Source of the DNA: Escherichia phage FEC14
Sequence record: MG383452
Reading direction: 5' to 3' (one strand)
DNA: 64,000 nt
This document shows, piece after piece, positions 7,901 to 57,035 of this stretch. Under the pieces are notes generated by a model. That model did no database searches, was not told the origin of the DNA, and saw only the letters and a list, made by a program, of their open reading frames with translations. A program made the position numbers and the translations under genes. The number at the start of each line of letters is the position of its first letter. The first letter of the stretch is position 1.

Positions 7901-8475
7901 ATTTTCTAAAAACTATCTTCAACACATCATATGAACTCAGCCAGCGCGATCCTAATCGTTCTCCTGTGTTTGTATATTGCAAACTCGTGGAAGAGTCTTG
8001 TGAACTATCAGATGTGCTTTATGGAATCGCTGCATCCGAACCCCTGAACGGTGAAGTGGCGGACGTTATCATCTCGGCTCTGGATCTATTATATGTTGTG
8101 GATTATCAACAAGTTCAACAACATGGGTCTATGACCAAAGAAGAAATCTTTGACTCCATGGTGTTTGCTTTGGCTACGGCCAATCACACAACTGATCTCA
8201 GCCAACATACGTTGGAGGATTATTGGTTCTGCAGTGGTGTTGAAACTATAGACAAATATCTTGCGATGGTTAATCATTACAAAGGCCGCATCACTCGTTT
8301 ACTGAACCAACCTCAACGTTCAGAAGATAATATGGTGGACCTGGTTTCAAATCTGATACGCAATACTGCCAAATTGGCGTGTGGATATAATCAAAACCAT
8401 ATCAACACGATCGTTAAAGTGGAACATGCCATAGAACACAAAGTGGAAAAATGGCGCACTAAATTTGGTCTATAA
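7897..8475 (+). CDS. MazG-like all-alpha nucleoside triphosphate pyrophosphohydrolase (putative)
   Basis: 'KLVEESCELSDVL' and 'EVADVIISALDLL' resemble the MazG EExxE...D metal-binding helices. Confidence 0.4.
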   Translation: MNFLKTIFNTSYELSQRDPNRSPVFVYCKLVEESCELSDVLYGIAASEPLNGEVADVIISALDLLYVVDYQQVQQHGSMTKEEIFDSMVFALATANHTTDLSQHTLEDYWFCSGVETIDKYLAMVNHYKGRITRLLNQPQRSEDNMVDLVSNLIRNTAKLACGYNQNHINTIVKVEHAIEHKVEKWRTKFGL

Positions 8476-15336: not shown

Positions 15337-15633
15337 ATGAAAGAGCAAGAAATTATCCAGCATTGTATTCGCTTAGGAACATTAAAACCTCTCTATCAGG
15401 CTTTGCGTTTCAATGCCATTAAATTCAAACCTTTACCAAGAACTATTGCAACGTTCTTTGCCATGCGTTCTGTTGGAAAAACGATTTTCTTTGAGCATGA
15501 CATTTATTTTTATACAAAGATTAATGGCGAAGATTTAGATAAAATGATTTTCGTGAACGACGATAAAAATATGAAGATAAAAGTGGAAAACGAATTGCGC
15601 AGGATAAATGATTCTTTAAGAGGAATATTTTAA
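15337..15633 (+). CDS. hypothetical protein
   Basis: 98-aa ORF. Confidence 0.45.
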   Translation: MKEQEIIQHCIRLGTLKPLYQALRFNAIKFKPLPRTIATFFAMRSVGKTIFFEHDIYFYTKINGEDLDKMIFVNDDKNMKIKVENELRRINDSLRGIF

Positions 15634-16295
15634 TGGAAATTGTTGTCTCAGTATCTGATTGTGATTTTGTATACCGTGTTCTTCAAGGGGATGCTCCATT
15701 GCCGCAGAATAATCAAGAAGTGACGTTGTTCTGGTCTGGTGGGGTGGATAGCACATACATGTTGATTTGGTTGTTATCGAAAGGATATTCAGTTCATACT
15801 GTGTATTGCCACCTCGAAAATAATAAATTTAAATCTAAGCGCGAAAATTGGGCGAGGAATAAAATACACAACTGGATTAATAAAAATGCCCCACTTCTCA
15901 TGTATCGTTGGACACATCATCAAGAACCTATCAGTAGCATCAACGTCCCGAACGGTGGTTTTCGCGCTTGTTTAGCACAAGCCCCGATATGGTTATTAAA
16001 CACGCAATTTAAAGGCAGTGGCTTGCCTTCCACGTATATCTTGGCATATGTTAACGGCGATGACGCAATACACTGGATACCCGCCTTTAATAAAGTCATT
16101 GAAGGGTACAACATGATGACCAGAGACGGGGAAAGACCTATTGAAATTTTATATCCATTGATTAGTCTCAAGAAATCTTGGTTCTATCATCACATGTCCC
16201 CAATACATGACTTAATGACATGGTGTGAATTGCCAATTTTGAAAAAGAATTGTGATTGCCCTGCGTGTGTTCGACATCGCCATGAGTTATCATAG
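15633..16295 (+). CDS. PP-loop ATPase, QueC-like (7-cyano-7-deazaguanine synthase family)
   Basis: PP-loop 'SGGVDS' and a C-terminal 'CDCPACVRHR' cysteine cluster resembling the QueC zinc site; about 220 aa. The N-terminus is ~35 aa longer than canonical QueC, so the start is uncertain. Confidence 0.5.
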   Translation: MEIVVSVSDCDFVYRVLQGDAPLPQNNQEVTLFWSGGVDSTYMLIWLLSKGYSVHTVYCHLENNKFKSKRENWARNKIHNWINKNAPLLMYRWTHHQEPISSINVPNGGFRACLAQAPIWLLNTQFKGSGLPSTYILAYVNGDDAIHWIPAFNKVIEGYNMMTRDGERPIEILYPLISLKKSWFYHHMSPIHDLMTWCELPILKKNCDCPACVRHRHELS

Positions 16296-18303: not shown

Positions 18304-18707
18304 AACGTTATCGCCTGAAGTTTGAGTTAACTCGAAGGGAAGACAACGAACTCATATATGGGGAAATTTTCATATATGATCCTTATGATACGGAATACAC
18401 TGAATGGCTGAAGATAATATTGGCTGGTGAAGTCGATAAAGTATACCGTGCCATTGAAAAGGACGCCAAAGGAGTATTAAGTTTTGGTCATCTTCGAGTC
18501 GCGGCCATGATTGGTTCAGCTTTAGAAATAGTGTCTGAAGCGATAGCCATAGATCTACCAGGGGAACATATCTTCATCCGTGAATCTAAAGTTGATATGG
18601 CAACGAATTATGTGATGAAATTGACCTTGGCAGAAAATATGGAAAATAACAAACCAAGCATTTTCCGCCGTTTCATGAACAAATTAAAGGGTGTTAAAAA
18701 TGATTAA
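18300..18707 (+). CDS. hypothetical protein
   Basis: 135-aa ORF with 4-nt overlaps on both sides. Confidence 0.5.
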   Translation: MKRYRLKFELTRREDNELIYGEIFIYDPYDTEYTEWLKIILAGEVDKVYRAIEKDAKGVLSFGHLRVAAMIGSALEIVSEAIAIDLPGEHIFIRESKVDMATNYVMKLTLAENMENNKPSIFRRFMNKLKGVKND

Positions 18708-19218
18708 ACCACGAATGATGTTCGCCCATATGCGATCAGCTGCAGCATATGGTGTAACCAGTTATGCTCGGCGTCTGCAAGTCGGTTGTGTTATCGTAAA
18801 CCCTGAAACTGATCAGCCTGTGGCTATCGGATGGAACGGAACGCCTCCTGGCATGCCGAATGTTTGTGAGATGGAACAACACGGGCAAATTGTTACAAAC
18901 CCGTGTGTCATTCATGCGGAGGAAAATGCTCTAATGCGTATCCCCGAAAATGCAGATGATTTCACAGGGTTGGTTATGTTTGTGACACATAGCCCATGCC
19001 CTGATTGCACTCAGAAGATCATCGACAACGGCAAGATCGATAAAGTATATTATCAAGAGCCATATCGTATCATGGATGGAATCAAAAGATTGATGAACTC
19101 CGGAATTGAAGTTTACCGGATGGTGGGCGATATGGCAATCCTTAAACACGTTTTCGACGATCAAGGCGAAGTCGGATACGAACAAATCTTATCCAACCCA
19201 GACAAAGTAAGGAATTAA
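18700..19218 (+). CDS. cd: dCMP deaminase (zinc-dependent cytidine/deoxycytidylate deaminase family)
   Basis: 'HAEENAL' and 'PCPDC' zinc-binding motifs; 'aaggg' SD before ATG 18700. Confidence 0.8.
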   Translation: MIKPRMMFAHMRSAAAYGVTSYARRLQVGCVIVNPETDQPVAIGWNGTPPGMPNVCEMEQHGQIVTNPCVIHAEENALMRIPENADDFTGLVMFVTHSPCPDCTQKIIDNGKIDKVYYQEPYRIMDGIKRLMNSGIEVYRMVGDMAILKHVFDDQGEVGYEQILSNPDKVRN

Positions 19219-20511: not shown

Positions 20512-21480
20512 ATGGCGAATTTCAAGTCGACCATCGATAAGATCAAAGTTCTGAACACAAAAGGCTTGGCCAAGTCTCAGAAGCAATTGGTCTATCCATT
20601 AGACATAACAGGGGGTAAAACCCTCGGCCATTATGTTCTATTCAACATCAACCGAATATCTGGTTCTTCATATGGGGACACCACAACCCAAACCGTCGAA
20701 AATCCGATACAAAATCCATTGGGTAAGACTCCTGTGGTTTATGGTTCTAAATCGGGTTCTATTAGCAAATATGCTTGGGCGCGTCATGTCCGCTCTAACG
20801 AGTCAATTGTGTTGTGTATGCCCGAATCCATTACAACCAACTATGGCGTTGGCTGGAACGGCTCCGAGTTGGGATTAGCAGGTATGGGTGCCCAATTCTT
20901 ATCACGCGCCGCCCAAGATATGAGTCAATTCAAACTTGGGGATGCTTTGAATGTTGGGAAAGAAATGGGGAGATTTGCGGCGACAAAGGCCATCCAATCT
21001 GCTTCGGAAGCAATTCCTTTCTTGCCGACAATTAATGCTCATGATACATTAGAATTGTTTACAGGTACGATGACCAACCCGTATGTGGAAATGATTTTCC
21101 AAGGGGTGCGCAACCGAGAAATCCCGTTCACATTCAAATTCACTCCAAGATCGCAAAAAGAGGCGAAAATGGTGCGGGAGATTATCCGTTTATTCAAGAT
21201 GCACATGTATCCAGAATACAAATACAACAAGAATTCCAGCGCATTCTATCTTCATCCATCCACGTTTGATATCACGTTCATGGTCCAGGGAGAACGCAAC
21301 AAATGGTTGCATCGGATATCGACTTGCGTCCTATCAAATATGTTTGTCAACGAGACGCCTGACTCTTCATATGCTGTACACAAAGATGACAGCATCGTGT
21401 CGACACAAATCGACATGACGTTTATAGAACTAGAACCGTTGCACAAAGGCCGCTTTGATACCGAAGGCGACAGCTTCTAA
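20512..21480 (+). CDS. putative baseplate/tail module protein
   Basis: 322-aa ORF opening a co-oriented block that ends with the gp29-like gene; assignment by context only. Confidence 0.3.
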   Translation: MANFKSTIDKIKVLNTKGLAKSQKQLVYPLDITGGKTLGHYVLFNINRISGSSYGDTTTQTVENPIQNPLGKTPVVYGSKSGSISKYAWARHVRSNESIVLCMPESITTNYGVGWNGSELGLAGMGAQFLSRAAQDMSQFKLGDALNVGKEMGRFAATKAIQSASEAIPFLPTINAHDTLELFTGTMTNPYVEMIFQGVRNREIPFTFKFTPRSQKEAKMVREIIRLFKMHMYPEYKYNKNSSAFYLHPSTFDITFMVQGERNKWLHRISTCVLSNMFVNETPDSSYAVHKDDSIVSTQIDMTFIELEPLHKGRFDTEGDSF

Positions 21481-21492
21481 GGAGAAGATGCC

Positions 21493-22050
21493 ATGAAATA
21501 TTTTGAGAAATTTCCACTCGTATGGCATCAACTAATTGGTGTCAAAGAGGATGACCAAGTCCTGTTGCAGAACTTAACACGACGGGTTATGGTTGTTAAG
21601 AAAATTAGGGACATAGAAGGGCTTCTCCTGCCGTATACTGTTTTTGATGGGGAAACCCCAAGGTCTTTTACCGAACGCGTCTACGGTTCCTTCGAGCTGT
21701 TTTGGATCCCATGTCTTATCAATGGTATCATGGACATCGCAGAGGACTGGCCGAAACCGGAGCGCCGTATCATTGAAGAACTGACTGCTCGATACGGCCT
21801 TGACGGAATGTGGGATGTGAAATACTATGTTGACGAATTCGGTCATGAAACAGATCCTAGAGCAATACGTTTAGCATATGGCCTTGGTTCTATGGATGAT
21901 TCCACGATTATCGCCAACTATGGTCTGACAGGTATTACATATCATGATGATGCTATAAACAAAAACGAAGCCAAACGGAATATTCAGGTTCTAGACCCAG
22001 ATTATGTTTCTTCCTTTGTTAATCAGCTGGAACAGGAGCTGACCAAATGA
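21493..22050 (+). CDS. putative baseplate hub module protein
   Basis: 185-aa ORF, translationally coupled to the next gene. Confidence 0.3.
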   Translation: MKYFEKFPLVWHQLIGVKEDDQVLLQNLTRRVMVVKKIRDIEGLLLPYTVFDGETPRSFTERVYGSFELFWIPCLINGIMDIAEDWPKPERRIIEELTARYGLDGMWDVKYYVDEFGHETDPRAIRLAYGLGSMDDSTIIANYGLTGITYHDDAINKNEAKRNIQVLDPDYVSSFVNQLEQELTK

Positions 22051-23435
22051 TCGAAAATAAAGAATCCCAGGACGGAATTTTAACTCCGTCCACAACATTT
22101 GATTTGAAATATATGGCGATATTACCGCACACACCTGAAGGCGGTACTCCCAAGCCTTATGACCTTTCATCGTTGTTTCAAGAATTCAACGTATATCAGG
22201 ATCTTGGTCTGGAAGGGAATGCTTCACCGTCGCTGACAGCTAATATTCTGATCAAAGAAGGCTGGGATATATTGGATACAATGCCAATCCTCGGAGGTGA
22301 GGAAGTAGTGGTATCGTTCAAATCACCTGCGGCTTCCGACTACACTACGCTTTCATTGCGAGTCAGTCGGGTGGGGAGAGTTGCTGACGAATCGAACTCT
22401 TCTTCGAAAAAGGCATTCTGGTTGCACTTGGTGACAACAGACGCGTATCGAGATAGCATGTTGCGTAAATCTGTTGGATTAAGCGGTTCTTATTCTGAGA
22501 TGGCAGCTAAAATCTTTGAGCAACTGAATTCACGCACCAAATTTGAAGACATAGATCCTTCATATGGGATACAAGAAAGGTTCGCTACCCCTCTTTGGCC
22601 TGTACTCCGCTCCATAGATTATATGGCCAGCCGTGCATATGACGAATTATTCATGCCATTCGTTTTCTATGAAGACTTTACGGGTTATCACTTCAAAAGC
22701 ATGACGACGTTGTTCAACCAGGGCAACCAGTCTATGACTGCTGAAGAGAAGCAAGAGGCTTCTATTGAAAAGAAATTCTTCCGAGACCCTCAAGACGCGC
22801 CGTTGATGCAGGATAACAATTTCAACTCAGAACGTTTCATGCGGACTATCATCAAGGCTGAAAAGAAACTGGCGCGTGATCAGTACATGGCGAACTATCG
22901 GGATATATTGGCTGTAAACGAACGTGTCTATGATTTCAGTACAAAATCCACTACAGCAACGCAACGCATTTATTCGGAATGGTTTGATAGCACGGCTCAC
23001 CTTGATCCGTTCCCTTTGTTCTCTGATCAATTCGACCGCGAGAACGTTAGGTACATTGAAGCGCAACCGGATGGTGCCGAACAAATAGATTACGCACGAC
23101 GCGTTATAGAATTCAGCCTCGCGTCAACGGTTATGCGTTTACTGGTCGTGGGGGATAACCGTCTGAATGTTGGGCAGGTTTATTATATTGAAGATTTGTC
23201 GAACCGCCCGAAATCTAATGAAAACATTGCCGAGTTAAGTAAGTTATCAACAGGCCATTATATCGTCACAAAGATACGCCACAAGATTTCACGCCTGACA
23301 AATGATTATCAATGCGTCGCCGAGATTGCCAAAGATAGTATGATCCAGAAGGTCTTACCGCCTCAGACTGGTCAAACTGTGGCTTCTACACCAACTCCGA
23401 CGCCAATAGAGAAAGGACAAGCCCAGAAGGTCTGA
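22047..23435 (+). CDS. putative baseplate hub module protein
   Basis: 462-aa ORF within the same operon-like block. Confidence 0.3.
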   Translation: MIENKESQDGILTPSTTFDLKYMAILPHTPEGGTPKPYDLSSLFQEFNVYQDLGLEGNASPSLTANILIKEGWDILDTMPILGGEEVVVSFKSPAASDYTTLSLRVSRVGRVADESNSSSKKAFWLHLVTTDAYRDSMLRKSVGLSGSYSEMAAKIFEQLNSRTKFEDIDPSYGIQERFATPLWPVLRSIDYMASRAYDELFMPFVFYEDFTGYHFKSMTTLFNQGNQSMTAEEKQEASIEKKFFRDPQDAPLMQDNNFNSERFMRTIIKAEKKLARDQYMANYRDILAVNERVYDFSTKSTTATQRIYSEWFDSTAHLDPFPLFSDQFDRENVRYIEAQPDGAEQIDYARRVIEFSLASTVMRLLVVGDNRLNVGQVYYIEDLSNRPKSNENIAELSKLSTGHYIVTKIRHKISRLTNDYQCVAEIAKDSMIQKVLPPQTGQTVASTPTPTPIEKGQAQKV

Positions 23436-23445
23436 GAGGTGACAA

Positions 23446-25386
23446 ATGGCAGATAACAATCAACCGACACCAGGGCAGCAAGACATCGTCAAGGTTTTGG
23501 ATAAAATCAAAAAAGAAATGATGGAGCGCAAGCAATTGCGCGCCCAATCCGAGACGAATAAACAGCTCGCAGATGTCAACAAACAACTGCAATCTCTGAA
23601 GACACGCCAGGCGTCTAATCAGGAGCAGAAAGTCCCGCCAATTAAATTCCCATCGGTGAATGATATTGTTGGTGGGTTTGTCCGCGTCAGTCCTATTTTC
23701 ACAAGGGATTACAGCACTTGGATGAAAGACACCGTCAGTCTTTCCAAGGACGGAAATGAAGAACTGATGCGAATCGCAACCAAAATAGAAAAATTTGGCG
23801 AAGCGGCGAATGGTCCGGTTGACGACATGTCAGTTGAATATCTTGACATGATATCAGATCAATTGGGCGCGGCCAACGAAGATAGTCTTGAACGCCTTGA
23901 TGGATTAAAGGATAAGCTGGCGTTGGTCGGAGGGGAGATCGTAAACCTGACTGACATAATGCTTCAAACGCATAAGGACACGCTGGATTTCAATAAAGAT
24001 GCCAGTAACGAAACTGTTACCCGCCTCGACAGCATTGATGACAAATTGGGATACATGAACGAAGATCTTAATGATACTCTGACACGTATCTATGAAAGTG
24101 ATCAAAAATATAGAGAAGAAGAGAAATTCCGTCGTGGCGAAGAAGGTAAGGAAAACAAGAACAACCCAGAGGCTGGTTCTATCCCTCCGTCTGAGCCTAA
24201 ACAAGATGGTCAATCTTCTGGGTTAGGCGCGGCGCTGGGGGCACTCCTTGGACTGGGTGCGTTAAAACTCCTGATGTCCCCATTAAAACTTGTTGGTGGC
24301 TTCATTAAATTATTCATGGGGTTTGGTGCTGGGATCGGCGGGTTACTTGCGCCTCTGAAAGCAGCAACCAAGATGCTTCGAGTTGGACCTCTGGCGTTAA
24401 TAACATCTGTATTTGAATTCGGTAAAGGTTTCTTTAATGCTAAAGAAATCCTTGGTAAAGCGCAAGTATCGATCGTTGATCGGGTTCAGGCAGGGATAAC
24501 AGAGCTGGTCGGTAGTTTCGGGGATCTCGCTGATTGGGTTGCTGAAATATTCGGATGGAACAATGCTGGGTTTGGAAAGGCGTTCCGTGAACAAGTGCTG
24601 AAAATGACCGAAGCGCCCGTGCGTTGGTTGAACTCGATTGTTGATTGGGTCACCAACGATTTGTTTGCGGGTATCGGGAAGAGTACATCACTGACCGAAA
24701 TCCCTGGTAAACTTGCAGACAACTTACAAGGCCAATTGATAAAATTGGTTGATTGGGTAACGGGCGGGATATCGGGATTGATTGATGATGGCATGGCGGC
24801 TGCAAATAAAGTCGTTGAAGATATGAAGAAAGGATTTGCGGAAAACGTGAAGAAACCATTCTTTAATATGTTGAATGCCATAACCAATGCCATGTTTGAT
24901 ATCGTGGATAAATTCGTGAGTATCATACCTGATGCTCTGGGTGGTGAAGCAGCCAGGAACAAAATGGCGGAAGCAAGACAGTCTATGCTAATCAGCCAAG
25001 ACGATAAGGCTCCTGAGAATGCGTCTACGCCGCCAAGCAGCCAATCACCAGCACAACCCAATGCCAATATCAGCACGTTAACTCCAATGCCTTCTGGGGT
25101 GTCCTCAGACGCTGTCAACGTTACGGATAGAACTTCACAATTGAAAGACGCATACGCAGGGATTGGGGGAGGTACTCTGGGCGGGGCTTATCCGGTTCAA
25201 GGAAGAGCAGCCAATAACATCGAAGAAGTTAAATCCGCCTATGCTAACCCGCCAGCCAGTGTTGTGGTTCCAGTACAACAAAATGTGGACAACTCGAAGA
25301 AAGTCAGTACGACGAACAACTTCAATAGTTCACAGTTGGAGCCGTCCAACCGTACTGATACAGGGCGCATTCTCTGGGATTGGTAA
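23446..25386 (+). CDS. gp29-like baseplate hub / tail-length determining protein (putative)
   Basis: 646 aa; N-terminal coiled-coil; central Gly/Ala/Leu-rich hydrophobic segment 'GLGAALGALLGLGALKLL...GFGAGIGGLLAPL'; size close to T4 gp29. Confidence 0.4.
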   Translation: MADNNQPTPGQQDIVKVLDKIKKEMMERKQLRAQSETNKQLADVNKQLQSLKTRQASNQEQKVPPIKFPSVNDIVGGFVRVSPIFTRDYSTWMKDTVSLSKDGNEELMRIATKIEKFGEAANGPVDDMSVEYLDMISDQLGAANEDSLERLDGLKDKLALVGGEIVNLTDIMLQTHKDTLDFNKDASNETVTRLDSIDDKLGYMNEDLNDTLTRIYESDQKYREEEKFRRGEEGKENKNNPEAGSIPPSEPKQDGQSSGLGAALGALLGLGALKLLMSPLKLVGGFIKLFMGFGAGIGGLLAPLKAATKMLRVGPLALITSVFEFGKGFFNAKEILGKAQVSIVDRVQAGITELVGSFGDLADWVAEIFGWNNAGFGKAFREQVLKMTEAPVRWLNSIVDWVTNDLFAGIGKSTSLTEIPGKLADNLQGQLIKLVDWVTGGISGLIDDGMAAANKVVEDMKKGFAENVKKPFFNMLNAITNAMFDIVDKFVSIIPDALGGEAARNKMAEARQSMLISQDDKAPENASTPPSSQSPAQPNANISTLTPMPSGVSSDAVNVTDRTSQLKDAYAGIGGGTLGGAYPVQGRAANNIEEVKSAYANPPASVVVPVQQNVDNSKKVSTTNNFNSSQLEPSNRTDTGRILWDW

Positions 25387-26049
25387 TCAAATTCCGTGGG
25401 CAAGGATTAGCTCACGGAGTTTTCCTTTTGTGTATTCTGTGTTTTCATCAGGAACAACTGAATTGGTTTTCTTTAATAAAAAAGACTCAGAGTTCCAATA
25501 GATGTCATCCTTGAGTATTGTATCATATAAATGGATGAACCCCACTACTTTATTCAATCCAACGAGAAACCAAATTGGATAGCGTTTAACAATAATATCT
25601 GTCAGTAAAGGTGGATGCCCATTACCATTTCCTTTGATATATTGGATAAAATTCACGCCTCTTTCTTTTATCTCAGGGATCATATATCTCTCAAAATGTT
25701 CAAGAAAATTATATGAGAAGTTGTCATACAGGCGGCGATATTCATTATAATTTTCTTGGGCCTGTCTTGTAAGTAATGTTGTCACCCATGTTTTTGGTGA
25801 TTTAACAAAGTTGGCGATGATATAATTTTCCACCACTTCACCCTGGGAAGATTCAAACCGACGAGCAAGTTTGGCAAATTGTTTGGCCACACCCTGTTTA
25901 GAATAGAACGTTTCAAACTTGTAATTGTTCATCGGCCCATACAGGCCATAATCAAAGTCTTTTGTGGTGAAATGCAATTTGATCGCCATATAGATGCAAT
26001 AAACGTTGAATGCCCTTTCATATTGCATTTTCTCCCACTCAGTTATCAT
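25387..26049 (-). CDS. gp59-like helicase loader (putative)
   Basis: 220 aa. Local resemblance to T4 gp59 as recalled ('VENYIIANFV' vs 'ALIFISNLVAN'); adjacent to ligase. Confidence 0.45.
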   Translation of the reverse strand: MITEWEKMQYERAFNVYCIYMAIKLHFTTKDFDYGLYGPMNNYKFETFYSKQGVAKQFAKLARRFESSQGEVVENYIIANFVKSPKTWVTTLLTRQAQENYNEYRRLYDNFSYNFLEHFERYMIPEIKERGVNFIQYIKGNGNGHPPLLTDIIVKRYPIWFLVGLNKVVGFIHLYDTILKDDIYWNSESFLLKKTNSVVPDENTEYTKGKLRELILAHGI

Positions 26050-26192
26050 GGCGTTTCTCCCTGCTTTTCTGTTTCTGTAATCTGCGGCGTTCAGAACAGA
26101 ACTGATTGAACTCCGTCACCAAGCCTTTCTCCTTTATAAAGAGAATGGCGTTTCGAAAAGCAATTCCAATCTTGGCATATGACGGCGGATTT

Positions 26193-26456
26193 TTACCAAC
26201 CACGTGATCTCTCCTCTGTGCGAACGAAACGTTGAAACTCTTCTGTCTTCCCTTGTCGGTGAATAAAAACCAACGCCAGAATAAAACGCCGAAAAGATTT
26301 TGGGATAAGACGATAACCGTTTGTCCAATTATAGACAACGTCAGAACAATTCATCATCTTCATCATCTGTAATTCAGAAACTCCCAATTCCCTCATAATG
26401 TTTATGAGATTAAGAGAATCATTGTCTTTCCTTGGTTTCTTATCAATAAGTTTCAT
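26193..26456 (-). CDS. small HTH-like DNA-binding protein (putative)
   Basis: 87-aa ORF; overlaps a second same-strand ORF (26039..26338) in another frame, so the gene model is uncertain. Confidence 0.35.
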   Translation of the reverse strand: MKLIDKKPRKDNDSLNLINIMRELGVSELQMMKMMNCSDVVYNWTNGYRLIPKSFRRFILALVFIHRQGKTEEFQRFVRTEERSRGW

Positions 26457-32710: not shown

Positions 32711-34141
32711 TTAACCGAAATTCCAATTATTCACGGTCTCGGCTTTCTTGACATCATTTACGTCGCCTGTTTTGTTTAAGTCATGTTTGATATGAACATT
32801 CTCAACATAACGGGCTTCCTCTTCTGTCAGGTCTCGCTTGACTTCATTCCAATCCAAGTCAAACAATATCTGTTTATCTTGATCCATACCGAACAAGAAC
32901 GATTTGAGTTTCTGTTTATTGGCATAACGGTTTTTCAAGATAGACGCTCGGGCTTTCTTAACAGCCGCCAGTTCATCAGGGGCATAGAACGCCATGATGA
33001 AGTCTGCAACCTTCGGAATACCGATAGCATCTGCCAGGTCGCTAATATTACCATCAGTCGCCGATTGTTTTTCACGGATAAATTGCATACCTGTCCATAC
33101 AGGGCAATCAAATTCAAATCCAAGCGCACGGAATTCACGCGCCACCGACGTATAATACACGTTGGTGTTCTGCATTAAATGGGCAGGAAGGCGAGAAGAC
33201 GCTGATTCACCCAAGTAGTCTATAATAATGACGTCCGGCGTAATTCCCGTGGATGTCGCATAATCAAGGATATCGCGGCGATATAGTCCTGTATGCCCAG
33301 CGCCTGAAGGATATTCCTTGATAACAATATCACCCTTCATGGAACCGTCTTGACGAGTTCGCAACTTTTGTATCGTGGCGACATATTCATGTCGTGAGAG
33401 CTTCTCTAAGGACTCGAAGTCCCTGCGCATCATACGGGCATCAAGGCGGTGACGCCAGACGTTCTCAGCCACTTCTAGGGTGAATACGAATACGTTCAAC
33501 CCTTGCTCGGAGTAACCAGCAGCCAAATCAATCAGAGTTGTTGTCTTACCCGCATTAATTGCACCCGTCACGATGTTCAGCGTTTTCTTACCAACACCAC
33601 CACGAGTCGCTTTGTTGAATATCTCTACAGCGAAAGGAATCTTCGCTTCATTAGAGTTCATGTGGTCGTATTGTTGTTCAGCCATTTCCCAATAGATATG
33701 GCCAAGATAAGAATCAAAACTTATCGCCAACGCCTCTTGTAGGAGAGTTGGAATCGTGTTCATCTCATCTTTACGTTTCTCATCACCATAGATGTTGACG
33801 GCGTGTTTGATCGCATTATGAACAGCTTTCTGCCGCGCCCAACTTTCTGTTTCTTTTACAAGCCATTCCTGATGGAATGTGTTGTCATTGATATTCTCAA
33901 GAGCAGAAATAGCTTGTTCAAATACGTGTTCGTTGAGCGAAGTCTTTTCCAGCATAATAGACAACGCTTCAACCGAAGGACGAGCATTATATTCGCAAGT
34001 GTAATGGTCAATGAGACCGAATATAATTTTCTCGCCTTCGTTATCGAAATAATCGGCTTTCAAATACGGCTGGATCTTTCTTTGATATTCTTCGTTATAG
34101 ATTAATTGGGAAAGCACGACAGATTCGAGTAACATTGGCAA
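32711..34141 (-). CDS. replicative DNA helicase (DnaB family, gp41-like)
   Basis: Walker A 'GAINAGKTT'; N-terminus 'VLSQLIYNEEYQ' and 'WLVKETE' parallel T4 gp41; 476 aa. Confidence 0.85.
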   Translation of the reverse strand: MPMLLESVVLSQLIYNEEYQRKIQPYLKADYFDNEGEKIIFGLIDHYTCEYNARPSVEALSIMLEKTSLNEHVFEQAISALENINDNTFHQEWLVKETESWARQKAVHNAIKHAVNIYGDEKRKDEMNTIPTLLQEALAISFDSYLGHIYWEMAEQQYDHMNSNEAKIPFAVEIFNKATRGGVGKKTLNIVTGAINAGKTTTLIDLAAGYSEQGLNVFVFTLEVAENVWRHRLDARMMRRDFESLEKLSRHEYVATIQKLRTRQDGSMKGDIVIKEYPSGAGHTGLYRRDILDYATSTGITPDVIIIDYLGESASSRLPAHLMQNTNVYYTSVAREFRALGFEFDCPVWTGMQFIREKQSATDGNISDLADAIGIPKVADFIMAFYAPDELAAVKKARASILKNRYANKQKLKSFLFGMDQDKQILFDLDWNEVKRDLTEEEARYVENVHIKHDLNKTGDVNDVKKAETVNNWNFG

Positions 34142-34471
34142 CTACCCCACCAAAATTTTGTTGTAATCCTGAGCATTTTGCTGTATCAGATCAACTAAGA
34201 TATCCCCAGACACCACAGTGAACAAGTCATTTTCTTTCAAATTAACAAATAACAAACGCCATGGTTTCTTCAATATATCTGTTGTAAAGGATAACCGAGG
34301 CTCTCCATTGTCTAAATGGACACCCACTTTCCCTATACGAAATTGAACGCCACGGAATTTGCCTTCCGTTATTTCGATTATTGCTAACTGATCAGAACCA
34401 GGGTCGATGATTTTGTAATTAACGGGGGAGTCTCCTCCCCCTGCAATATTACTCGGTTGTTTTGATGACAT
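34142..34471 (-). CDS. hypothetical protein
   Basis: 109-aa ORF between uvsX and the helicase gene. Confidence 0.45.
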   Translation of the reverse strand: MSSKQPSNIAGGGDSPVNYKIIDPGSDQLAIIEITEGKFRGVQFRIGKVGVHLDNGEPRLSFTTDILKKPWRLLFVNLKENDLFTVVSGDILVDLIQQNAQDYNKILVG

Positions 34472-35534
34472 TATCGAGGCGCTCCAGCATATCTGCAGGC
34501 ATAACCGAACTCTGAGAGATACCGAACATGTTGTTCACATCGTCAACAAAGTCTGGGTTTTCCAGCAGCGGATACCAGAAGTCATCCCCCAGCTCTGCCT
34601 TACGATATTTCTTTTCTTTTTCTGGATCAAACCCGCCTTTGGCAGTGCGTTGATACCAAGAACCACTCACCAAATCCACATACCCCAGCATGCGCGCAAT
34701 TTCTAACATACCGGACCAACGGTCAATACCGCCTTCATACAACACAGTGACAGGGAACTTGGCTTTTTCACGGACAAAGCGGCCTTTCATAATGTTGACT
34801 GTAAACTGCCATCCCAAAAGGTCTTTGTCTTCTTTAACTTGAGAACGCGTGATGAACCACAATTGGTTAGAAGACAGGAACCCCTGTTTACCGCCTTTGA
34901 TGTTCGGCTCGGCGTATTGGTTCCCGATTTCATCATAGTACGAGTTGATCCATACCAAAACGAATTTCTTTTCAGTGACCAACGGGGTGATAACACGCCA
35001 AAAACTATTGAGAGCGCGAGCGCGGGTCATATCTTGTGTGTCTTTGCCCGCGATGGCATCATCAACTTCTTTGGTAGACGGCAACTGGCTGATTGAGTCA
35101 ATGAATACGATGATCTTGTCACCTTTCTGTGCATCGTTCAGAAGCTGTGTCAGCTTGATCTTCGTCTTTTCAACGTTTTCAATTGGCAGATACAAGACAC
35201 GGTCCATGTCAATACCCATAGATGTCCAGTAGTTTTCATTCGCACCGCCTTCTGAATCCGCGAAGATACAAATTGCATCAGGAAACTTATCCATGTAAGC
35301 CTTAACATCCACCAGCCCAAACATGGTTTTGAATGTACGAGAATCCCCCACCAACTGTTTGATGCCTGATATCAGACCACCATCAATACGACCGGACCAG
35401 GCCAAATTCAGAATAGGAATACCCGTACTGCAAATAATGTCAGGCTTCAGCGCATCGGTCTTTGACAGCACTTCGGCATTCGGGTCCAGTTTCTTTGCTG
35501 TCTTGAGCATGCGAGCCATCAATGAATCGGCCAT
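34449..35534 (-). CDS. uvsX: RecA-like recombinase UvsX
   Basis: 'PILNLAWSGRIDGGL', 'VFIDSISQL' and 'DMTRARAL' parallel T4 UvsX. Confidence 0.85.
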   Translation of the reverse strand: MADSLMARMLKTAKKLDPNAEVLSKTDALKPDIICSTGIPILNLAWSGRIDGGLISGIKQLVGDSRTFKTMFGLVDVKAYMDKFPDAICIFADSEGGANENYWTSMGIDMDRVLYLPIENVEKTKIKLTQLLNDAQKGDKIIVFIDSISQLPSTKEVDDAIAGKDTQDMTRARALNSFWRVITPLVTEKKFVLVWINSYYDEIGNQYAEPNIKGGKQGFLSSNQLWFITRSQVKEDKDLLGWQFTVNIMKGRFVREKAKFPVTVLYEGGIDRWSGMLEIARMLGYVDLVSGSWYQRTAKGGFDPEKEKKYRKAELGDDFWYPLLENPDFVDDVNNMFGISQSSVMPADMLERLDNVIKTTE

Positions 35535-36049
35535 TTCGTTTCCTCTTGCTTGTTGATCGTAATTAATAAATCGGTGCCCAAGACTTTCTTGGACAATATA
35601 TTGATTGCTTCGTGAATCGCCATTATTGACGGGAGTTTTTCATCGTTAATTTCGGAACCCCCGCGTTCTGTTAAATACATATTACGCAGACGATTGTGCT
35701 GTGCCCTGTTGACACAAGAAACATTCAATGCGATATTCAGGATATACATCATTTGTTCAGTTGTAACATCCTTTGGAATAGCATGAACATAATATATCGC
35801 ATCTTCAAAATAGATATGCTGTAATGACTCTGGAATTTCTTCCCCGCCAAAAGCAAAATCTTCAATGCGTTTAAATAGTGTTTCCGGCTCTGGTGTTGTA
35901 ATATGTTGTGTTACAGTAGCCGCACCATCTGGCTCTTTCTTGAAATTGGTCGCAATAACGACATGACCGCCTGGTTTAATAAACTCAGCGAAGTTCTCTG
36001 CCATGTACGGGGCATGTTCCGCATAATATGATACGACAACTGTAAACAT
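35519..36049 (-). CDS. hypothetical protein
   Basis: 176-aa ORF in the nucleotide-metabolism operon. Confidence 0.5.
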   Translation of the reverse strand: MFTVVVSYYAEHAPYMAENFAEFIKPGGHVVIATNFKKEPDGAATVTQHITTPEPETLFKRIEDFAFGGEEIPESLQHIYFEDAIYYVHAIPKDVTTEQMMYILNIALNVSCVNRAQHNRLRNMYLTERGGSEINDEKLPSIMAIHEAINILSKKVLGTDLLITINKQEETKWPIH

Positions 36050-36600
36050 TAGAACTCCAGAGTCAGAGGGGTTTCGGCAGACTTGTCATAGTTCGCACCG
36101 CCAGCAGCACGTAGACGATTGCGATCGTTCTTGCGCTTGTGGGCCAGCATATAGGTTTCGGTGTCCAGATCCAAATAACCACAAGCCTTTGATAAAAACC
36201 GCACAAAACGGATAACATCTGGTTGAACCATAAATGACGTAAAACATTCTGTGACCGATTCCAGATTGGCCGATTTGTCTATCACTCGTCCGTCCTTGAA
36301 GAAAAGGTCAATCTGCATTTCAACTGGGAAAGCAGAACCAAATCCAGATAAAATGGAAGACAACATAAAATGTACCACGTCCACCAATTCGTAGACAGCT
36401 GCTTCTCGGTCATATTGTATCCCACCGCCATAGATTTTCCAGTCCTGGGTTGTTTCGTCAAGAAACTCTGCCCACTCACGATAGATGGAGTTCACCACCG
36501 CCACATGAGTCCAATGTTTACGCCACTCTTCCCCAAAATAGGCCACGTTGGTGGCCTTTTGAAGTTCGAGCAGACTTTTGATATGCTCTGCTGTGATCAT
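36049..36600 (-). CDS. all-alpha NTP pyrophosphatase-like protein (MazG / dimeric dUTPase-dCTPase-like, putative)
   Basis: 'REWAEFLDETTQD' and 'ELVDVVHFMLS' helices resemble the all-alpha NTP-PPase fold. Confidence 0.35.
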   Translation of the reverse strand: MITAEHIKSLLELQKATNVAYFGEEWRKHWTHVAVVNSIYREWAEFLDETTQDWKIYGGGIQYDREAAVYELVDVVHFMLSSILSGFGSAFPVEMQIDLFFKDGRVIDKSANLESVTECFTSFMVQPDVIRFVRFLSKACGYLDLDTETYMLAHKRKNDRNRLRAAGGANYDKSAETPLTLEF

Positions 36601-37166
36601 TTCCGTTCCCTATAAAATTTGACGAATGGTTGCCAACCTTCAAATGGGTTAACAAATTCATAATCAACTTTCATCTCATCAATGAAAGCCTCTATGTCGT
36701 CCTCTATGATACCGCCGCGATCTGCCTTTGAAATGCGGGTGATGGGACATTTAGTGCTCAGCGCCCATTCATATTCTTGAGGCGTCCGTAGATCACTCAC
36801 AATATAATGAATGTTAGGATTCTGTTCAACTAATGGGAGTTGGTAACGCTTAAAGAAAGACAAAAACAGATCCGGTTGGACATAACGAAGCCCCGTATCG
36901 CTGCCGAGATGAAGCCAGATCTGCCTTGGGGTTAATCCCTTGGGGTTATCTGGGTGAACATATGGCAAGTCCTTGATATCGTCCTCTACTTCCTCTGGCA
37001 ACCAAGGATAGATGTAATGAGCCACCCGACGCAACTCGTCCGAGAAAGATAAGCGCTGGATGTCCATATCACCCTGTAAATGGTGATAGCTGATGAGGGA
37101 CTCCAAACAGAAGTCCTTGCCGGAGCGCTTGCGCCCCGTAAAGAATTCAAGGTTCGGATACATCAT
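36597..37166 (-). CDS. deoxynucleoside monophosphate kinase (gp1-like)
   Basis: P-loop 'FTGRKRSGKD' matches T4 gp1 'LSGVKRSGKD'. Confidence 0.7.
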   Translation of the reverse strand: MMYPNLEFFTGRKRSGKDFCLESLISYHHLQGDMDIQRLSFSDELRRVAHYIYPWLPEEVEDDIKDLPYVHPDNPKGLTPRQIWLHLGSDTGLRYVQPDLFLSFFKRYQLPLVEQNPNIHYIVSDLRTPQEYEWALSTKCPITRISKADRGGIIEDDIEAFIDEMKVDYEFVNPFEGWQPFVKFYRERK

Positions 37167-38212
37167 ACTGCACCTTCCAAGAACTTGGGATCAACGATCT
37201 TGCGGTCAATCGGAGAATGGGCGAGCGCGATGTTCAAACCATGATCCTGAATCAGGTTCATGTTGATGAGCTTGTCGTTCAGTTTGCAGTACAGGCAGTA
37301 CGCCATCTGCACGATCAGGCCGCGATCCGCGCCGTACTCCTTCAGGTGAGCGACAACAGTTTCCCACGGGCTGCCGATATCACAGTGATGAAGCACACCA
37401 GTGAACAGATTGCGGATATGGTTCTGGTTGGTCACGTTCGTGAAGTAGATCATGGAGTTGATGAAACCACCAGTGACTTTTGTGTCTTTGGTGATCTTGC
37501 CAAGCTGCTTCTGGCTGACTTCATTGTTGTAGTAATGAAGATTGTTAGAGAATAGCTTGTACTGACCGACATCAACATCTAACACCTGAGCAATCACTTC
37601 CTGAAGAATAGAGAACTCAATGAAGTTGATTGAACTCATCCCCCACAGAACATCCTGTGAGCGGTTGATGACCGTCAGGTTCAGACGACCTTCAACGATG
37701 GCGAACAACAGAGCCAGGTTACACACCATGTCCTTAGTCTTTGCTTCGCCGCTCTCGCTGAACTTCGCCAGACCAGCATCCGAATCTAGAGCCGGATCAT
37801 AGATGGTGAGGTACGCTTGACGAGTATTTGGGTTCTTGCGTAGGCGGTTGATAACGCTATCCAGCTGGCCATGGGCGTACAGACGCGGACCATAAGCGGC
37901 TCGCCATGTATGGCCATTATCAGAGAAGTTGGCGGCGCGAGGGAGGACACGGGACAAGAAGCGCACATCATCGCGCCCAGACAGAACCCAGAAGGTCTCG
38001 CCGATGGCAGCAATAGCCGATGAGTTGCGTCCTTCAACAGACAGCCAACGGTCGCGGATGTCAGAGACGGTGATCGTCACGCCATCAATAAAACGAGTGC
38101 CGTCTGTGTTGATCTCCGCGTTACCAGGGTCAGATTCAATCCCGTGCTCACGGATAGCCAAGACAGCCTGTTTCAGCATGTCGTTGTTGTTAATTGCTTT
38201 GATTTCCATCAA
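37163..38212 (-). CDS. thymidylate synthase-family enzyme (ThyA-like or pyrimidine hydroxymethylase) with C-terminal extension
   Basis: TS-fold motifs 'AYGPRLYAHG', 'NPNTRQAYLTIYDP', Cys-containing 'DMVCNLALLF', 'LTVINRSQDVLWGMSSINF'; 349 aa, longer than ThyA (~264-286) or T4 gp42 (246). Confidence 0.65.
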   Translation of the reverse strand: MMEIKAINNNDMLKQAVLAIREHGIESDPGNAEINTDGTRFIDGVTITVSDIRDRWLSVEGRNSSAIAAIGETFWVLSGRDDVRFLSRVLPRAANFSDNGHTWRAAYGPRLYAHGQLDSVINRLRKNPNTRQAYLTIYDPALDSDAGLAKFSESGEAKTKDMVCNLALLFAIVEGRLNLTVINRSQDVLWGMSSINFIEFSILQEVIAQVLDVDVGQYKLFSNNLHYYNNEVSQKQLGKITKDTKVTGGFINSMIYFTNVTNQNHIRNLFTGVLHHCDIGSPWETVVAHLKEYGADRGLIVQMAYCLYCKLNDKLINMNLIQDHGLNIALAHSPIDRKIVDPKFLEGAV

Positions 38213-38883
38213 TAAATACTCCCAAAATCACGATTGAGAAACGCAAAAACAGCCTGCTCTACAGTCAGGCCATCGGACTTCATCATACCTGCGGGAACGG
38301 TAGGGAACAAGCCTTTATGCCGTTGACGATGATCATGAACTCTCTCCCACTTCTCGACCACCAGACTTTCATTGAAGTCTGCGCCACCGTTACGCGATTT
38401 GACACGGGCAATACAGGTTTCAAGAGGGGTATCCATAAAGAGGACGACCAATTCACGTGGTGGGCGTGTCAGGCGGGGAATCCAAGAACTCAATAATGTA
38501 GACGGAATGATGCCTTCGAAAATCACATCATATTTCAGGTATTCTGGTTGGTCAGCAATAGACAACGCGAACAACATCTGCTCAGTATCCTTCAGAGAAT
38601 CAACCCCTTTGGACTTAGACTTGTCATATTTACCGACACAGACAATATTGTAAGATGGACAAACCGTGAGCATGATCTTACTGTTATGGGTTACGACATA
38701 CGCCTGAGGATCATTCTCCGCCAAATAAGAGGGCACAGTAGACTTACCACTACCATTGGAGCCTTTAATGTAATACAACTCTCCTCGTGCCGAATATTCC
38801 CCTTCTACAGTAGGTGGTTTGACAAACAAATGCACAGGGCGCTTCAACAGCCCTTTGAGCGAATAAGACATGACATGCTCCAA
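38209..38883 (-). CDS. P-loop kinase-like protein
   Basis: Walker A 'GSNGSGKST'; 4-nt overlap with the TS-family gene. Confidence 0.5.
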   Translation of the reverse strand: MEHVMSYSLKGLLKRPVHLFVKPPTVEGEYSARGELYYIKGSNGSGKSTVPSYLAENDPQAYVVTHNSKIMLTVCPSYNIVCVGKYDKSKSKGVDSLKDTEQMLFALSIADQPEYLKYDVIFEGIIPSTLLSSWIPRLTRPPRELVVLFMDTPLETCIARVKSRNGGADFNESLVVEKWERVHDHRQRHKGLFPTVPAGMMKSDGLTVEQAVFAFLNRDFGSIY

Positions 38884-38943
38884 TAAACAAAAGGAGCTGC
38901 TATTATAGCAGCCCCTTTATCTATTGAACGCTTCTGAATTAAA

Positions 38944-39903
38944 TTACGCAGCAGCTTTCGCTTCGGCCAACGCCTGAGGCAACCATTCATTGATTGCTTT
39001 CACCAGAGATTCGGCATCAGTTTCTTTGATTTTCTGGCGTTTGGTGAATGATTTACCATTCACATACAGACTGAACCCCCAGCCGCCGGAAACGATCGGC
39101 GCCAGATCAACATAAGTATTGGTGCGGGCGTGTGGATTGGCTTCATCTGCCAGTTCGGTAACAGGGAACTGGAACCAGCGCATATCCGGATTCACATAGC
39201 TCAAATAAACCCCAGGCACAACCCCTGATTCAACCGCAGCCAGGATAGGACCATAATTGGATGCGCGAGCCGCTTCAACCATTTCTTCACGCTTGTTATG
39301 ACGACGCTTGCGTTCTTCGGTAGAAGATGCAGGGCGCATTTCAGAAGATTTCTTGGCCAGAACCGCCTTCGCGTTCGCTAAAGCCTGATCATCCTTCGGA
39401 TTTTCAACGTCGGCGATTGCTTCAGCAACGGTTGTGCCCAGCATACGACGGCGAACTTCTTCAGCACGGGCTTGCGCTTCTTCGTCAAGAACTTCTTCGC
39501 CTTCAACTACCAGGGAAATGGAACCGTCTTTGTTGACTTCAAGAGAACCGTCTTCGACGGTCTGGGAATTTTGATCACCGACAGGTTGCCCAACCGTTTC
39601 TTCGGCGTCAATCACCGGATTTGATTCACCGTCGCCCTGTTTAACCCCCGCATCTTCGGTCGGTTTAACTTTTTCGGCTTCAGCGCGGTCAAGAGCTTCG
39701 AGAGTCTCTTCTTTCTCTTCCTGGCTCAGACCTTCGATGAGTTCAAAGCCATTGGCTGACTGGAGGACGCCTTCCATCATACGGCGTAACGTGACGTTGC
39801 CGATGATAAGGTCTGCACCTTTGATTTCTGCTTGAAGATCAGCAGCGGTTTTACCATCAATTTCAAATTTCAGGCCGGACTCGATATGAAGAATATAGGA
39901 CAT
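38944..39903 (-). CDS. hypothetical acidic protein
   Basis: 319-aa ORF with a long Glu/Asp-rich central region; early-type promoter upstream. Confidence 0.55.
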   Translation of the reverse strand: MSYILHIESGLKFEIDGKTAADLQAEIKGADLIIGNVTLRRMMEGVLQSANGFELIEGLSQEEKEETLEALDRAEAEKVKPTEDAGVKQGDGESNPVIDAEETVGQPVGDQNSQTVEDGSLEVNKDGSISLVVEGEEVLDEEAQARAEEVRRRMLGTTVAEAIADVENPKDDQALANAKAVLAKKSSEMRPASSTEERKRRHNKREEMVEAARASNYGPILAAVESGVVPGVYLSYVNPDMRWFQFPVTELADEANPHARTNTYVDLAPIVSGGWGFSLYVNGKSFTKRQKIKETDAESLVKAINEWLPQALAEAKAAA

Positions 39904-39964
39904 AATAAAAACCCTTTTGTGTAGTAACCTTCTTTGGCAGTTTAATGTTCAACTGTGCGTCTGG

Positions 39965-40000
39965 AACATTAATATACTGCCTTTTTAGAAGATGTAAACC
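39965..40000 (-). promoter_or_regulatory. putative T4-early-type promoter (coordinates approximate)
   Basis: Minus strand reads 'GTTTACA', 16-17 nt, 'TATATT', preceded by A/T-rich 'ttcaataaaaa'. Confidence 0.45.
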
Positions 40001-52604: not shown

Positions 52605-52623
52605 GTTTCTTTCCTGATGAATA

Positions 52624-56777: not shown

Positions 56778-56846
56778 AAGAAAATACCTCCGCAATGTAT
56801 GCGAAGGTATTTAAAGTGAAAGTCGAACTTGAGGATTTAGTGTCGA

Positions 56847-57035
56847 TTATCTGACTACGACGATAGGCATGATTTCTTTGAAGGAAGTCCTAACTTCGGA
56901 ATCATACCCATATTTTTCAAATATTTTCAACATCGCTTGTTCCAGTTCCTCTTGGAACTGAGGAAAGTGCGCGTTGGGAATTCGGTCGGCAACCCATAGA
57001 GCGCCAGGAGAGGCTTGGATAATTGCTCTACTCAT
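56847..57035 (-). CDS. hypothetical small protein
   Basis: 62-aa ORF. Confidence 0.4.
   Translation of the reverse strand: MSRAIIQASPGALWVADRIPNAHFPQFQEELEQAMLKIFEKYGYDSEVRTSFKEIMPIVVVR

Follow-up and report, generated by a model that had tools for sequence, protein, structure and literature searches.

Analysis of a 64,000-nucleotide stretch of the genome of Escherichia phage FEC14 (the window) indicated that a block of overlapping genes very probably encodes the pre-replicative half, together with the first post-replicative enzyme, of a ViI-type thymidine hypermodification pathway. Modules of this type have already been described (Kutter et al. 2011; Lee et al. 2018, 2021), and the published picture of the pathway is unchanged. 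The DNA of phages ViI and CBA120 carries 5-(2-aminoethoxy)methyluridine (5-NeOmdU) at ∼40% of T positions, and experiments demonstrated that ViI gp67 is an active DNA kinase, established the later pathway steps, and detected the modified base in virions of both phages (Lee et al. 2018, 2021). Moreover, it was reported that 3H-thymidine is not incorporated by CBA120, and that the thymidylate synthase (TS) homologue of this phage clusters with dUMP hydroxymethylases (Kutter 2011).

The block occupies positions 35519-38871 on the minus strand and contains five genes, each overlapping the next. The presence of four of these genes had been claimed in a preliminary description of this DNA; all four were confirmed on the minus strand with strong profile matches, and thus are not chance open reading frames. 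The junctions between these four genes overlap (TGATG, ATGA, and ATGA), which makes the translational coupling that had also been proposed plausible. The fifth gene meets the pyrophosphatase gene at a TAATG junction and appears to be coupled like the other four; beyond it, a gap-free run of genes continues into uvsX and a gp41-type helicase gene. At the other end, a terminator-like hairpin (38890-38918, minus strand), consisting of a 13-bp stem followed by TTTTGTTT, delimits the block upstream, and no sigma-70-like promoter was found between this hairpin and the start of the first gene. The genome belongs to a Kuttervirus (ViI-like Ackermannviridae). Over the block, phages LPEK22, S8, and S117 were 99.7% identical to the window at the nucleotide level and SFP10 was 99.6% identical; this allele of the block is common to SFP10, S117, and LPEK22. 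The block was found in 268 Ackermannviridae-type records, and Salmonella phage Vi01 is colinear with the window.

The TS homologue (37163-38209, minus strand, ATG at 38209) contains 348 aa, compared with 264 aa for E. coli ThyA and 246 aa for T4 gp42, in keeping with the unusual length remarked upon in the preliminary description. A catalytic core (approximately residues 1-240) is followed by a helical C-terminal domain (approximately residues 260-340). The protein, a member of phrog_3676, matched PF00303 (Thymidylat_synt) above threshold (E=4e-16) over residues 65-235 only; the match stops at position 218 of the 266-position profile, and the helical domain stands in place of the TS tail. When the protein was scored against seven NCBIfam ThyA equivalog models, all scores fell below the cut-offs (at most 56.5 bits, versus 108-427); the best-scoring model, at 56.5 bits, has a cut-off of 327. 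BLASTP analyses matched the protein to SPO1 gp29 at E=6e-32 and to E. coli ThyA at E=6e-14, and detected no significant similarity to T4 gp42, kinship with which was visible only at the profile level (hhalign, 98%). When an AlphaFold2 model (pLDDT 94.4) was compared with solved structures using Foldseek, Streptomyces MilA was the best match (342 columns, TMq 0.75), versus ∼240 columns and TMq ∼0.53 for ThyA entries. The long C-terminal extension is ordinary for this branch of the family, in which SPO1 gp29 has 383 aa and MilA carries an extra five-helix C-terminal domain. Most GenBank records label the TS homologue "thymidylate synthase".

Residue equivalences were established through MAFFT and hhalign alignments with ThyA, SPO1 gp29, T4 gp42, and MilA, and conservation was assessed over 50 homologues. 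The nucleophile, base, and phosphate-binding residues were all kept (C163, E71, Y106, R183-S184-Q-D186, and H225-Y-Y227) and, with the exception of S184, were invariant in the 50 homologues. According to the MilA paper, the base-specificity position is Asn in uracil enzymes and Asp in cytosine enzymes. In both the MAFFT and hhalign alignments, N195 was paired with E. coli N177 and SPO1 N194. The corresponding loop, GMSSINF, has no acidic residue, conserves the Asn, and carries one residue more than its counterparts in ThyA and T4 gp42; in a gap-free alignment with T4, Asp179 is set against Ile194, not Asn195. In the motif D160-M-V-C163, D160 aligned with E. coli L143 and T4 D145. D-x-x-C is a hydroxymethylase signature, its first residue being the water-activating Asp145 in T4 dCMP hydroxymethylase and Leu in TS (PMC6400193). 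Both D160 and N195 were at least 90% conserved across the 50 homologues. The other half of the T4 signature, a Ser/Thr at position -2 relative to the catalytic Tyr, was not kept (A104-A105-Y106 instead); given that SPO1 gp29 also has Ala there, this half seems to be specific to cytosine hydroxymethylases. As for ThyA features, among the residues that shield the ThyA active site Trp80 is deleted, Trp83 is replaced by F95, and Leu143 by D160; the protein also has no C-terminal tail to close on the folate.

From the sequence and profile alignments, N195 is identified as the putative uracil-specificity residue and D160 as the putative hydroxymethylase Asp. Comparison of the specificity residues, proposed as a check in the preliminary description, thereby yielded a uracil-type N195 and a hydroxymethylase-type D160; the clear ThyA-type active site that had been named there as counter-evidence was not borne out (Trp80 deleted, Leu143 changed to Asp, and tail absent). 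The view that sequence cannot tell a TS from a hydroxymethylase also proved too pessimistic, in light of the D-x-x-C motif, the loss of Trp80 and the tail, the similarity to SPO1 gp29, and the MilA fold. The TS homologue thus reads as a predicted dUMP hydroxymethylase. The literature searched contained no enzyme assay of any Kuttervirus TS homologue.

The gene upstream of the predicted hydroxymethylase gene (38209-38871, minus strand) was read from an ATG at 38871 and encodes 220 aa; a TTG start at 38883, given by the mechanical open reading frame, is probably unused. The protein matched Pfam PF18748 (HMUDK_HMUD1) over all 196 profile positions (1-196; E=3.7e-113, 376 bits, cut-off 27), and was 94% identical to ViI gp67, which is encoded at the same locus (Vi01_061c = YP_004327432; Lee et al. 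2021, Table 1). ViI gp67 was demonstrated biochemically to phosphorylate 5-hmdU DNA (Lee et al. 2021). The 220-aa protein is, by homology, the orthologue of ViI gp67, namely a 5-hmdU DNA kinase (5-HMUDK), with 5-hmdU in polymerised DNA as its predicted substrate. The Walker A motif GSNGSGKST noted in the preliminary description was confirmed; however, of the two P-loop kinases described there, only the dNMP kinase held up as a nucleotide kinase, and the PF18748 score of 376 bits together with the 94% identity to ViI gp67 ruled out a second nucleotide kinase. Searches for solved structures related to the DNA kinase or the dNMP kinase returned no useful match. In public annotation, the DNA base kinase is often mislabelled "terminase small subunit".

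The dNMP kinase (36597-37166, minus strand, 189 aa) matched phrog_139 (deoxynucleoside monophosphate kinase; E=7.6e-49) and was 91% identical to Vi01_059c. Its P-loop, GRKRSGKD, resembles GVKRSGKD of T4 gp1 (G-x-K-R-S-G-K-D); BLASTP similarity to gp1 was confined to this motif (E=0.003) and was otherwise not significant. In CBA120, the dNMP kinase also adjoins the TS homologue (Kutter 2011), and the enzyme is predicted to convert 5-hmdUMP to 5-hmdUDP. The next protein (36049-36600, minus strand, 183 aa) matched PF08761 dUTPase_2 (31.6 bits, cut-off 22.9) and phrog_173 (E=7e-38), and weakly matched the Campylobacter dimeric dUTPase 1w2y; the match to T4 gp56 was limited to a short local ELVDxxHF motif, and there was no match to SPO1 gp22.1. 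These profiles place it in the all-alpha dimeric-dUTPase/MazG-like class of NTP pyrophosphatases. In line with what Kutter 2011 proposed, its predicted role is the removal of dUTP and, probably, dTTP from the nucleotide pool. Two more genes are annotated as MazG-like in ViI-like genomes. The last gene of the block (35519-36049, minus strand) encodes an ACT_phage-domain protein of unknown function, which matched PF24021 over its full length (E=6e-88) and phrog_3839; no relative with a solved structure was found. Elsewhere in the window, a dCMP deaminase gene (18691-19218, plus strand; PF00383, E=5e-17) corresponds to Vi01_030, annotated as dCMP deaminase, and a role for such enzymes in hmU phages has been described (Lee 2021).

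In the proposed pathway, dUMP supplied by the dCMP deaminase would be used by the hydroxymethylase, together with methylene-tetrahydrofolate, to form an exocyclic-methylene dUMP intermediate on Cys163. Rather than being reduced, this intermediate would be attacked by a water activated by Asp160, yielding 5-hydroxymethyl-dUMP and tetrahydrofolate. The dNMP kinase would then produce 5-hmdUDP, which host NDP kinase would convert to 5-hmdUTP, while the all-alpha pyrophosphatase would deplete the pool of competing dUTP and probably also of dTTP. DNA synthesized by the phage polymerase would consequently contain 5-hmdU in place of T. Subsequently, 5-HMUDK would phosphorylate the hydroxymethyl group of a subset of the 5-hmdU bases in DNA, giving 5-PmdU, the activated intermediate for hypermodification. 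Finishing enzymes would be encoded outside the window; in ViI, the serine transferase gp247 and the PLP decarboxylase gp226 convert 5-PmdU to 5-(2-aminoethoxy)methyl-dU.

Other readings of the block were also weighed. An ordinary, dTMP-making thymidylate synthase with generic nucleotide-salvage enzymes as neighbours would agree with the above-threshold Pfam Thymidylat_synt match, the label in most GenBank records, and the presence of the uracil-type Asn. However, the NCBIfam scores lay far below the ThyA equivalog cut-offs (at most 56.5 bits versus 108-427), Leu143 is changed to Asp, Trp80 and the folate-closing tail are missing, SPO1 gp29 and MilA are closer than ThyA, the only known substrate of the adjoining kinase is 5-hmdU in DNA, and thymidine is excluded from CBA120 DNA; we regard this reading as highly improbable. 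Plain ThyA was rejected on the NCBIfam cut-offs and the active-site residues. Still harder to sustain was a T4-like module in which a dCMP hydroxymethylase serves hydroxymethyl-dCTP synthesis. Its gene order would fit, in that the gene is placed as T4 gene 42 is relative to genes 41 and uvsX, and the dNMP kinase and all-alpha pyrophosphatase parallel T4 gp1 and gp56. But the GMSSINF loop conserves Asn and has no acidic residue, BLASTP similarity to T4 gp42 was not significant, hmC substitution is absent in CBA120, and the adjacent kinase falls within the family of 5-hmdU DNA kinases. Together, the specificity loop and the missing gp42 similarity led to the rejection of a dCMP hydroxymethylase of the T4 type. 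Of the possibilities raised in the preliminary description, a base-modification module and, within it, thymidine hypermodification were upheld, whereas the hydroxymethyl-dCTP option fell on the Asn loop and the nonsignificant gp42 BLASTP.

It is also conceivable, though very unlikely, that the phage stops at 5-hmdU or bears some other final modification, the late genes being missing from, or different in, its genome. When the 64-kb window was searched with tblastn for ViI gp226, gp243, and gp247, none was found, and gp160 was also absent there; moreover, the C-terminal domain of the TS homologue and the pyrophosphatase have diverged markedly from those of ViI. In Vi01, however, gp226, gp243, and gp247 are located at ∼140-152 kb, and SFP10, nearly identical over the block, has orthologues of all three (86-93% identity). 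The pathway genes are reported in the literature to be conserved across Ackermannviridae, and a 5-hmdU DNA kinase itself implies processing past 5-hmdU. Given that the late genes lie outside the window, the final modification of the ViI-type pathway is inferred from near-identical genomes.

For the ViI-type pathway, the value of the module is practical and annotational rather than one of discovery. Its genes account for the resistance of ViI-like phage DNA to many restriction enzymes and for its failure to take up thymidine. Its public annotation is often wrong, the hydroxymethylase being listed as "thymidylate synthase" and the base kinase as "terminase small subunit". A far more speculative, and rather doubtful, idea is that the fast-evolving C-terminal domain of the hydroxymethylase and the coupled ACT_phage protein might do more than assist folding and form a docking and regulatory module, bringing the hydroxymethylase together with the dNMP kinase and the pyrophosphatase in a channelled complex that makes 5-hmdUTP and in which the pyrophosphatase would be the long-postulated dTTPase. 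Such a putative complex would have a parallel in the dNTP synthetase complex of T4.

Among known systems, Salmonella phage ViI (Vi01_058c-061c) has the same gene order, orientation, coordinates, and pathway role, and its gene annotated thyA corresponds to the dU hydroxymethyltransferase described by Lee et al. (2018, 2021). Identity to ViI was 94% for the DNA kinase, 91% for the dNMP kinase, and 95% for the ACT_phage protein, but only 69% for the pyrophosphatase; the TS homologue was 77% identical overall (core, 83-93%; C-terminal domain, 43-57%), and positions 36186-36360 and 37166-37371 failed to align with ViI at the nucleotide level. The dUMP hydroxymethylase gp29 of Bacillus phage SPO1 was 33% identical to the TS homologue over 221 aa. 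Both proteins have the one-residue-longer loop with Asn and the D-x-x-C motif, both carry Ala where T4 has Ser94, and both possess a long, helical C-terminal region. The two C-terminal regions could not be aligned by BLASTP, however, and SPO1 halts at 5-hmdU and lacks 5-HMUDK. MilA, a CMP 5-hydroxymethylase (PDB 5jnh, 5b6d), was the best solved-structure relative both by sequence (E=5e-17) and by fold, with a match that takes in the extra C-terminal helical domain and D-x-x-C. MilA uses CMP: Asp186 occupies its specificity position, and Lys133 and Ala176 are its ribose residues. The TS homologue, unlike MilA, has Asn and the deoxyribose-type residues R130 and S184. Finally, T4 gp42, gp1, and gp56 (dCMP hydroxymethylase, dNMP kinase, and dCTPase-dUTPase) follow the same logic, whereby a dNMP is hydroxymethylated and phosphorylated and the competing dNTP is destroyed, and are similarly positioned beside uvsX and gene 41. 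The T4 system differs in that its base is C rather than U, its sequence similarity is very weak, and its post-replicative step is glucosylation rather than base phosphorylation.

The gene block was present on the minus strand in both the ORF listing and the raw sequence, which confirms the preliminary description, with start codons being the sole correction. From its first gene onwards, it encodes a 220-aa P-loop protein (38209-38871; ATG at 38871, with GGAG in front), a 348-aa thymidylate synthase (TS) homologue (37163-38209), a 189-aa dNMP kinase (36597-37166), a 183-aa all-alpha NTP pyrophosphatase (36049-36600), and a 176-aa ACT_phage-domain protein (35519-36049). The mechanically called TTG starts (38883 and 38212) are unlikely to be the real ones. 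The five genes form a run without gaps, with successive stop/start overlaps of TGATG, ATGA, ATGA, and TAATG, and the run continues gap-free downstream into uvsX, a small ORF, and a gp41-type helicase gene. A terminator-like hairpin with a 13-bp stem (38918-38890) precedes the first gene by about 20 nt. The G+C content of 36001-40000 was 0.48, above that of the flanking 2-kb bins (0.42-0.45).

In the TS homologue, only residues 65-235 matched Pfam (TS profile positions 51-218 of 266), and all seven NCBIfam ThyA equivalog models scored far under their cut-offs (best, 56 bits vs 327). BLASTP gave 33% identity over 221 aa (E=6e-32) with SPO1 gp29, a classical dUMP hydroxymethylase of 383 aa, and 22% identity (E=6e-14) with E. 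coli ThyA. Among solved relatives found by sequence, the CMP hydroxymethylase MilA was best (E=5e-17; top ThyA, 3e-9). An AlphaFold2 model built from 50 homologues was confident (pLDDT 94.4, pTM 0.93) and comprised a TS core followed by helices 262-277, 282-291, 298-310, and 323-336. When this model was compared with the PDB by Foldseek, MilA ranked first (342 columns, TMq 0.75), whereas ThyA entries covered only about 240 columns (TMq about 0.53). As its structure paper reports, MilA has an additional five-helix C-terminal domain that is remote from the active site and required for solubility. Given this domain and the length of SPO1 gp29, the long C-terminal extension remarked on earlier is real, but is typical of the MilA / SPO1 gp29 branch and therefore no oddity. 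Many metagenomic and actinophage homologues (P0050-P0105) are 490-600 aa long (e.g., 517 aa in Brevibacterium phage LuckyBarnes), with a C-terminal region far longer than that of the Kuttervirus protein.

An alignment of the specificity residues, proposed in the preliminary description, was obtained with MAFFT and hhalign, and revealed a uracil-type Asn195, a hydroxymethylase-type Asp160, and the loss of Trp80. The catalytic set was complete (C163, E71, and Y106, equivalent to C146, E58, and Y94 of E. coli ThyA), and R183-S184-x-D186 and H225/Y227 corresponded to R166-S167-x-D169 and H207/Y209. Asn195, at the base-specificity position, is equivalent to N177 of E. coli ThyA and N194 of SPO1 gp29; according to the MilA structure paper, uracil users have Asn here and cytosine users have Asp (D179 in T4 dCMP hydroxymethylase, D186 in MilA). 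Asp160, three residues ahead of the nucleophile, aligned to Asp145 of the T4 enzyme and Leu143 of E. coli TS. In the work of Park et al. (2019), the substrate water was shown to be activated by Asp145, D145N abolished activity, and D-x-x-C set hydroxymethylases apart from TS. Both D160 and N195 were conserved at 90% or more in the 50-member family alignment. Moreover, Trp80 of TS was deleted and Trp83 was replaced by Phe95. The Ser two residues ahead of the Tyr, part of the T4 signature, was Ala104, and SPO1 gp29 likewise lacks this Ser. Compared with that of ThyA or T4 gp42, the specificity loop contains one extra residue, and its register relative to T4 is therefore ambiguous.

The 220-aa protein, whose P-loop motif is GSNGSGKST, covered the whole Pfam PF18748 (5-hmdU DNA kinase) profile (E=3.7e-113) and was 94% identical to Vi01_061c (YP_004327432) of Salmonella phage Vi01 (ViI). 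Lee et al. (2021) list YP_004327432 as ViI gp67, the 5-hmdU DNA kinase, and showed that it turns 5-hmdU in DNA into 5-phosphomethyl-dU. On this match and identity to an assayed enzyme, the 220-aa protein is predicted to be a DNA base kinase, and its earlier reading as a second nucleotide kinase is ruled out. The label "terminase small subunit", attached to the 5-hmdU DNA kinase in PHROGs (phrog_800) and RefSeq (Vi01, SFP10, and others), is a propagated mis-annotation; in Vi01, the genes for the true small terminase and the large terminase are adjacent, at about 111 kb.

Two pathways had been suggested for the block, T4-like hmC synthesis and thymidine hypermodification. The former is wrong: the specificity loop (GMSSINF) has no acidic residue, and BLASTP against T4 gp42 gave no significant match. 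The latter held, and we conclude that the block comprises the nucleotide-level module of ViI-type thymidine hypermodification together with the first enzyme that acts on DNA, with the hydroxymethylase being predicted. Such a module is already known. Kutter et al. (2011) observed no 3H-thymidine incorporation by the related phage CBA120, grouped its "thymidylate synthase" with the dUMP hydroxymethylases of phiW-14, SPO1, and YuA, and noted the adjoining dNMP kinase. Lee et al. (2018) established that ViI DNA contains 5-(2-aminoethoxy)methyluridine, noted that the 5-hmdU DNA kinase and dU hydroxymethyltransferase co-occur, and reconstituted the modification with gp67, gp160, gp226, gp243, and gp247; of these, gp67 and gp243 act as kinases, gp247 as the serine:DNA transferase, and gp226 as the PLP decarboxylase (Lee et al. 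2021). A 2024 review gives about 40% replacement of T in Vi01 and CBA120, with modification genes conserved across the family. The late genes (gp226, gp243, and gp247) lie at 140-152 kb in Vi01, and none was found within the 64-kb window; SFP10, near-identical to the window over the block, has orthologues of 86-93% identity. A dCMP deaminase gene in the window (18691-19218) may supply dUMP to the hydroxymethylase. A 220-aa protein encoded at 15633-16295 (plus strand) has a PP-loop (SGGVDS) and weak QueC, ThiI, and tRNA_Me_trans matches confined to the N-terminal ATP-binding motif; its Vi01 counterpart is annotated "QueC-like queuosine biosynthesis".

The dNMP kinase matched phrog_139 (E=8e-49). 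Its similarity to T4 gp1 is largely confined to an unusual P-loop, GxKRSGKD. The pyrophosphatase exceeded the Pfam dUTPase_2 threshold and matched phrog_173; comparison with T4 gp56 gave no more than a short shared motif, and that with SPO1 gp22.1 gave no match. We infer the substrates of this pair; according to a proposal by Kutter et al. (2011), the CBA120 dUTPase would double as a dTTPase. A 192-aa ORF at 7897-8475 (plus strand), the counterpart of Vi01_011 (annotated as a MazG-like pyrophosphatase), had no Pfam match at E<=0.01. With this ORF, the 36049-36600 gene, and a counterpart of Vi01_131c (adjoining gp160, outside the window), the genome has three candidate NTP pyrophosphatases. The ACT_phage protein corresponds over its whole length to Pfam PF24021 (E=6e-88), and a search for solved relatives found none. 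Its gene, coupled to the pyrophosphatase gene through TAATG, overlaps uvsX by 16 nt, and its product may regulate the nucleotide module by binding a small molecule.

The 4.4-kb block was 99.7% identical to those of Escherichia phage LPEK22 and Salmonella phages S8, S117, and kage, and 99.6% identical to that of SFP10; it matched 268 phage records, chiefly from Salmonella, Klebsiella, Escherichia, and Dickeya phages. Vi01 (Kuttervirus, Ackermannviridae) and the window are colinear, nearly coordinate for coordinate, at 76-91% nucleotide identity. Two short stretches of the block, 36186-36360 and 37166-37371, were unaligned by blastn, although their flanks were 84-90% identical. The former lies inside the pyrophosphatase gene (69% overall protein identity to Vi01), and the latter encodes the hydroxymethylase C-terminal helical domain (43-57% identity to ViI vs 83-93% in the core), which suggests mosaic or fast-evolving segments. 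Two other sites in the window, ~52605-52612 (small ORF Vi01_083c, between nrdB and nrdA) and ~56829-56857 (the Vi01_087c region), each lack about 280-300 bp relative to Vi01; these appear to be ordinary indels affecting small accessory ORFs. Finally, the order of window 32711-38871 (minus strand; gp41 helicase, small ORF, uvsX, and then the TS-family hydroxymethylase) mirrors that of T4 20612-26219 (genes 41, 40, uvsX, (segA, beta-gt), and 42), and the position of the pyrimidine hydroxymethylase is therefore conserved in both phage groups, despite the different base.
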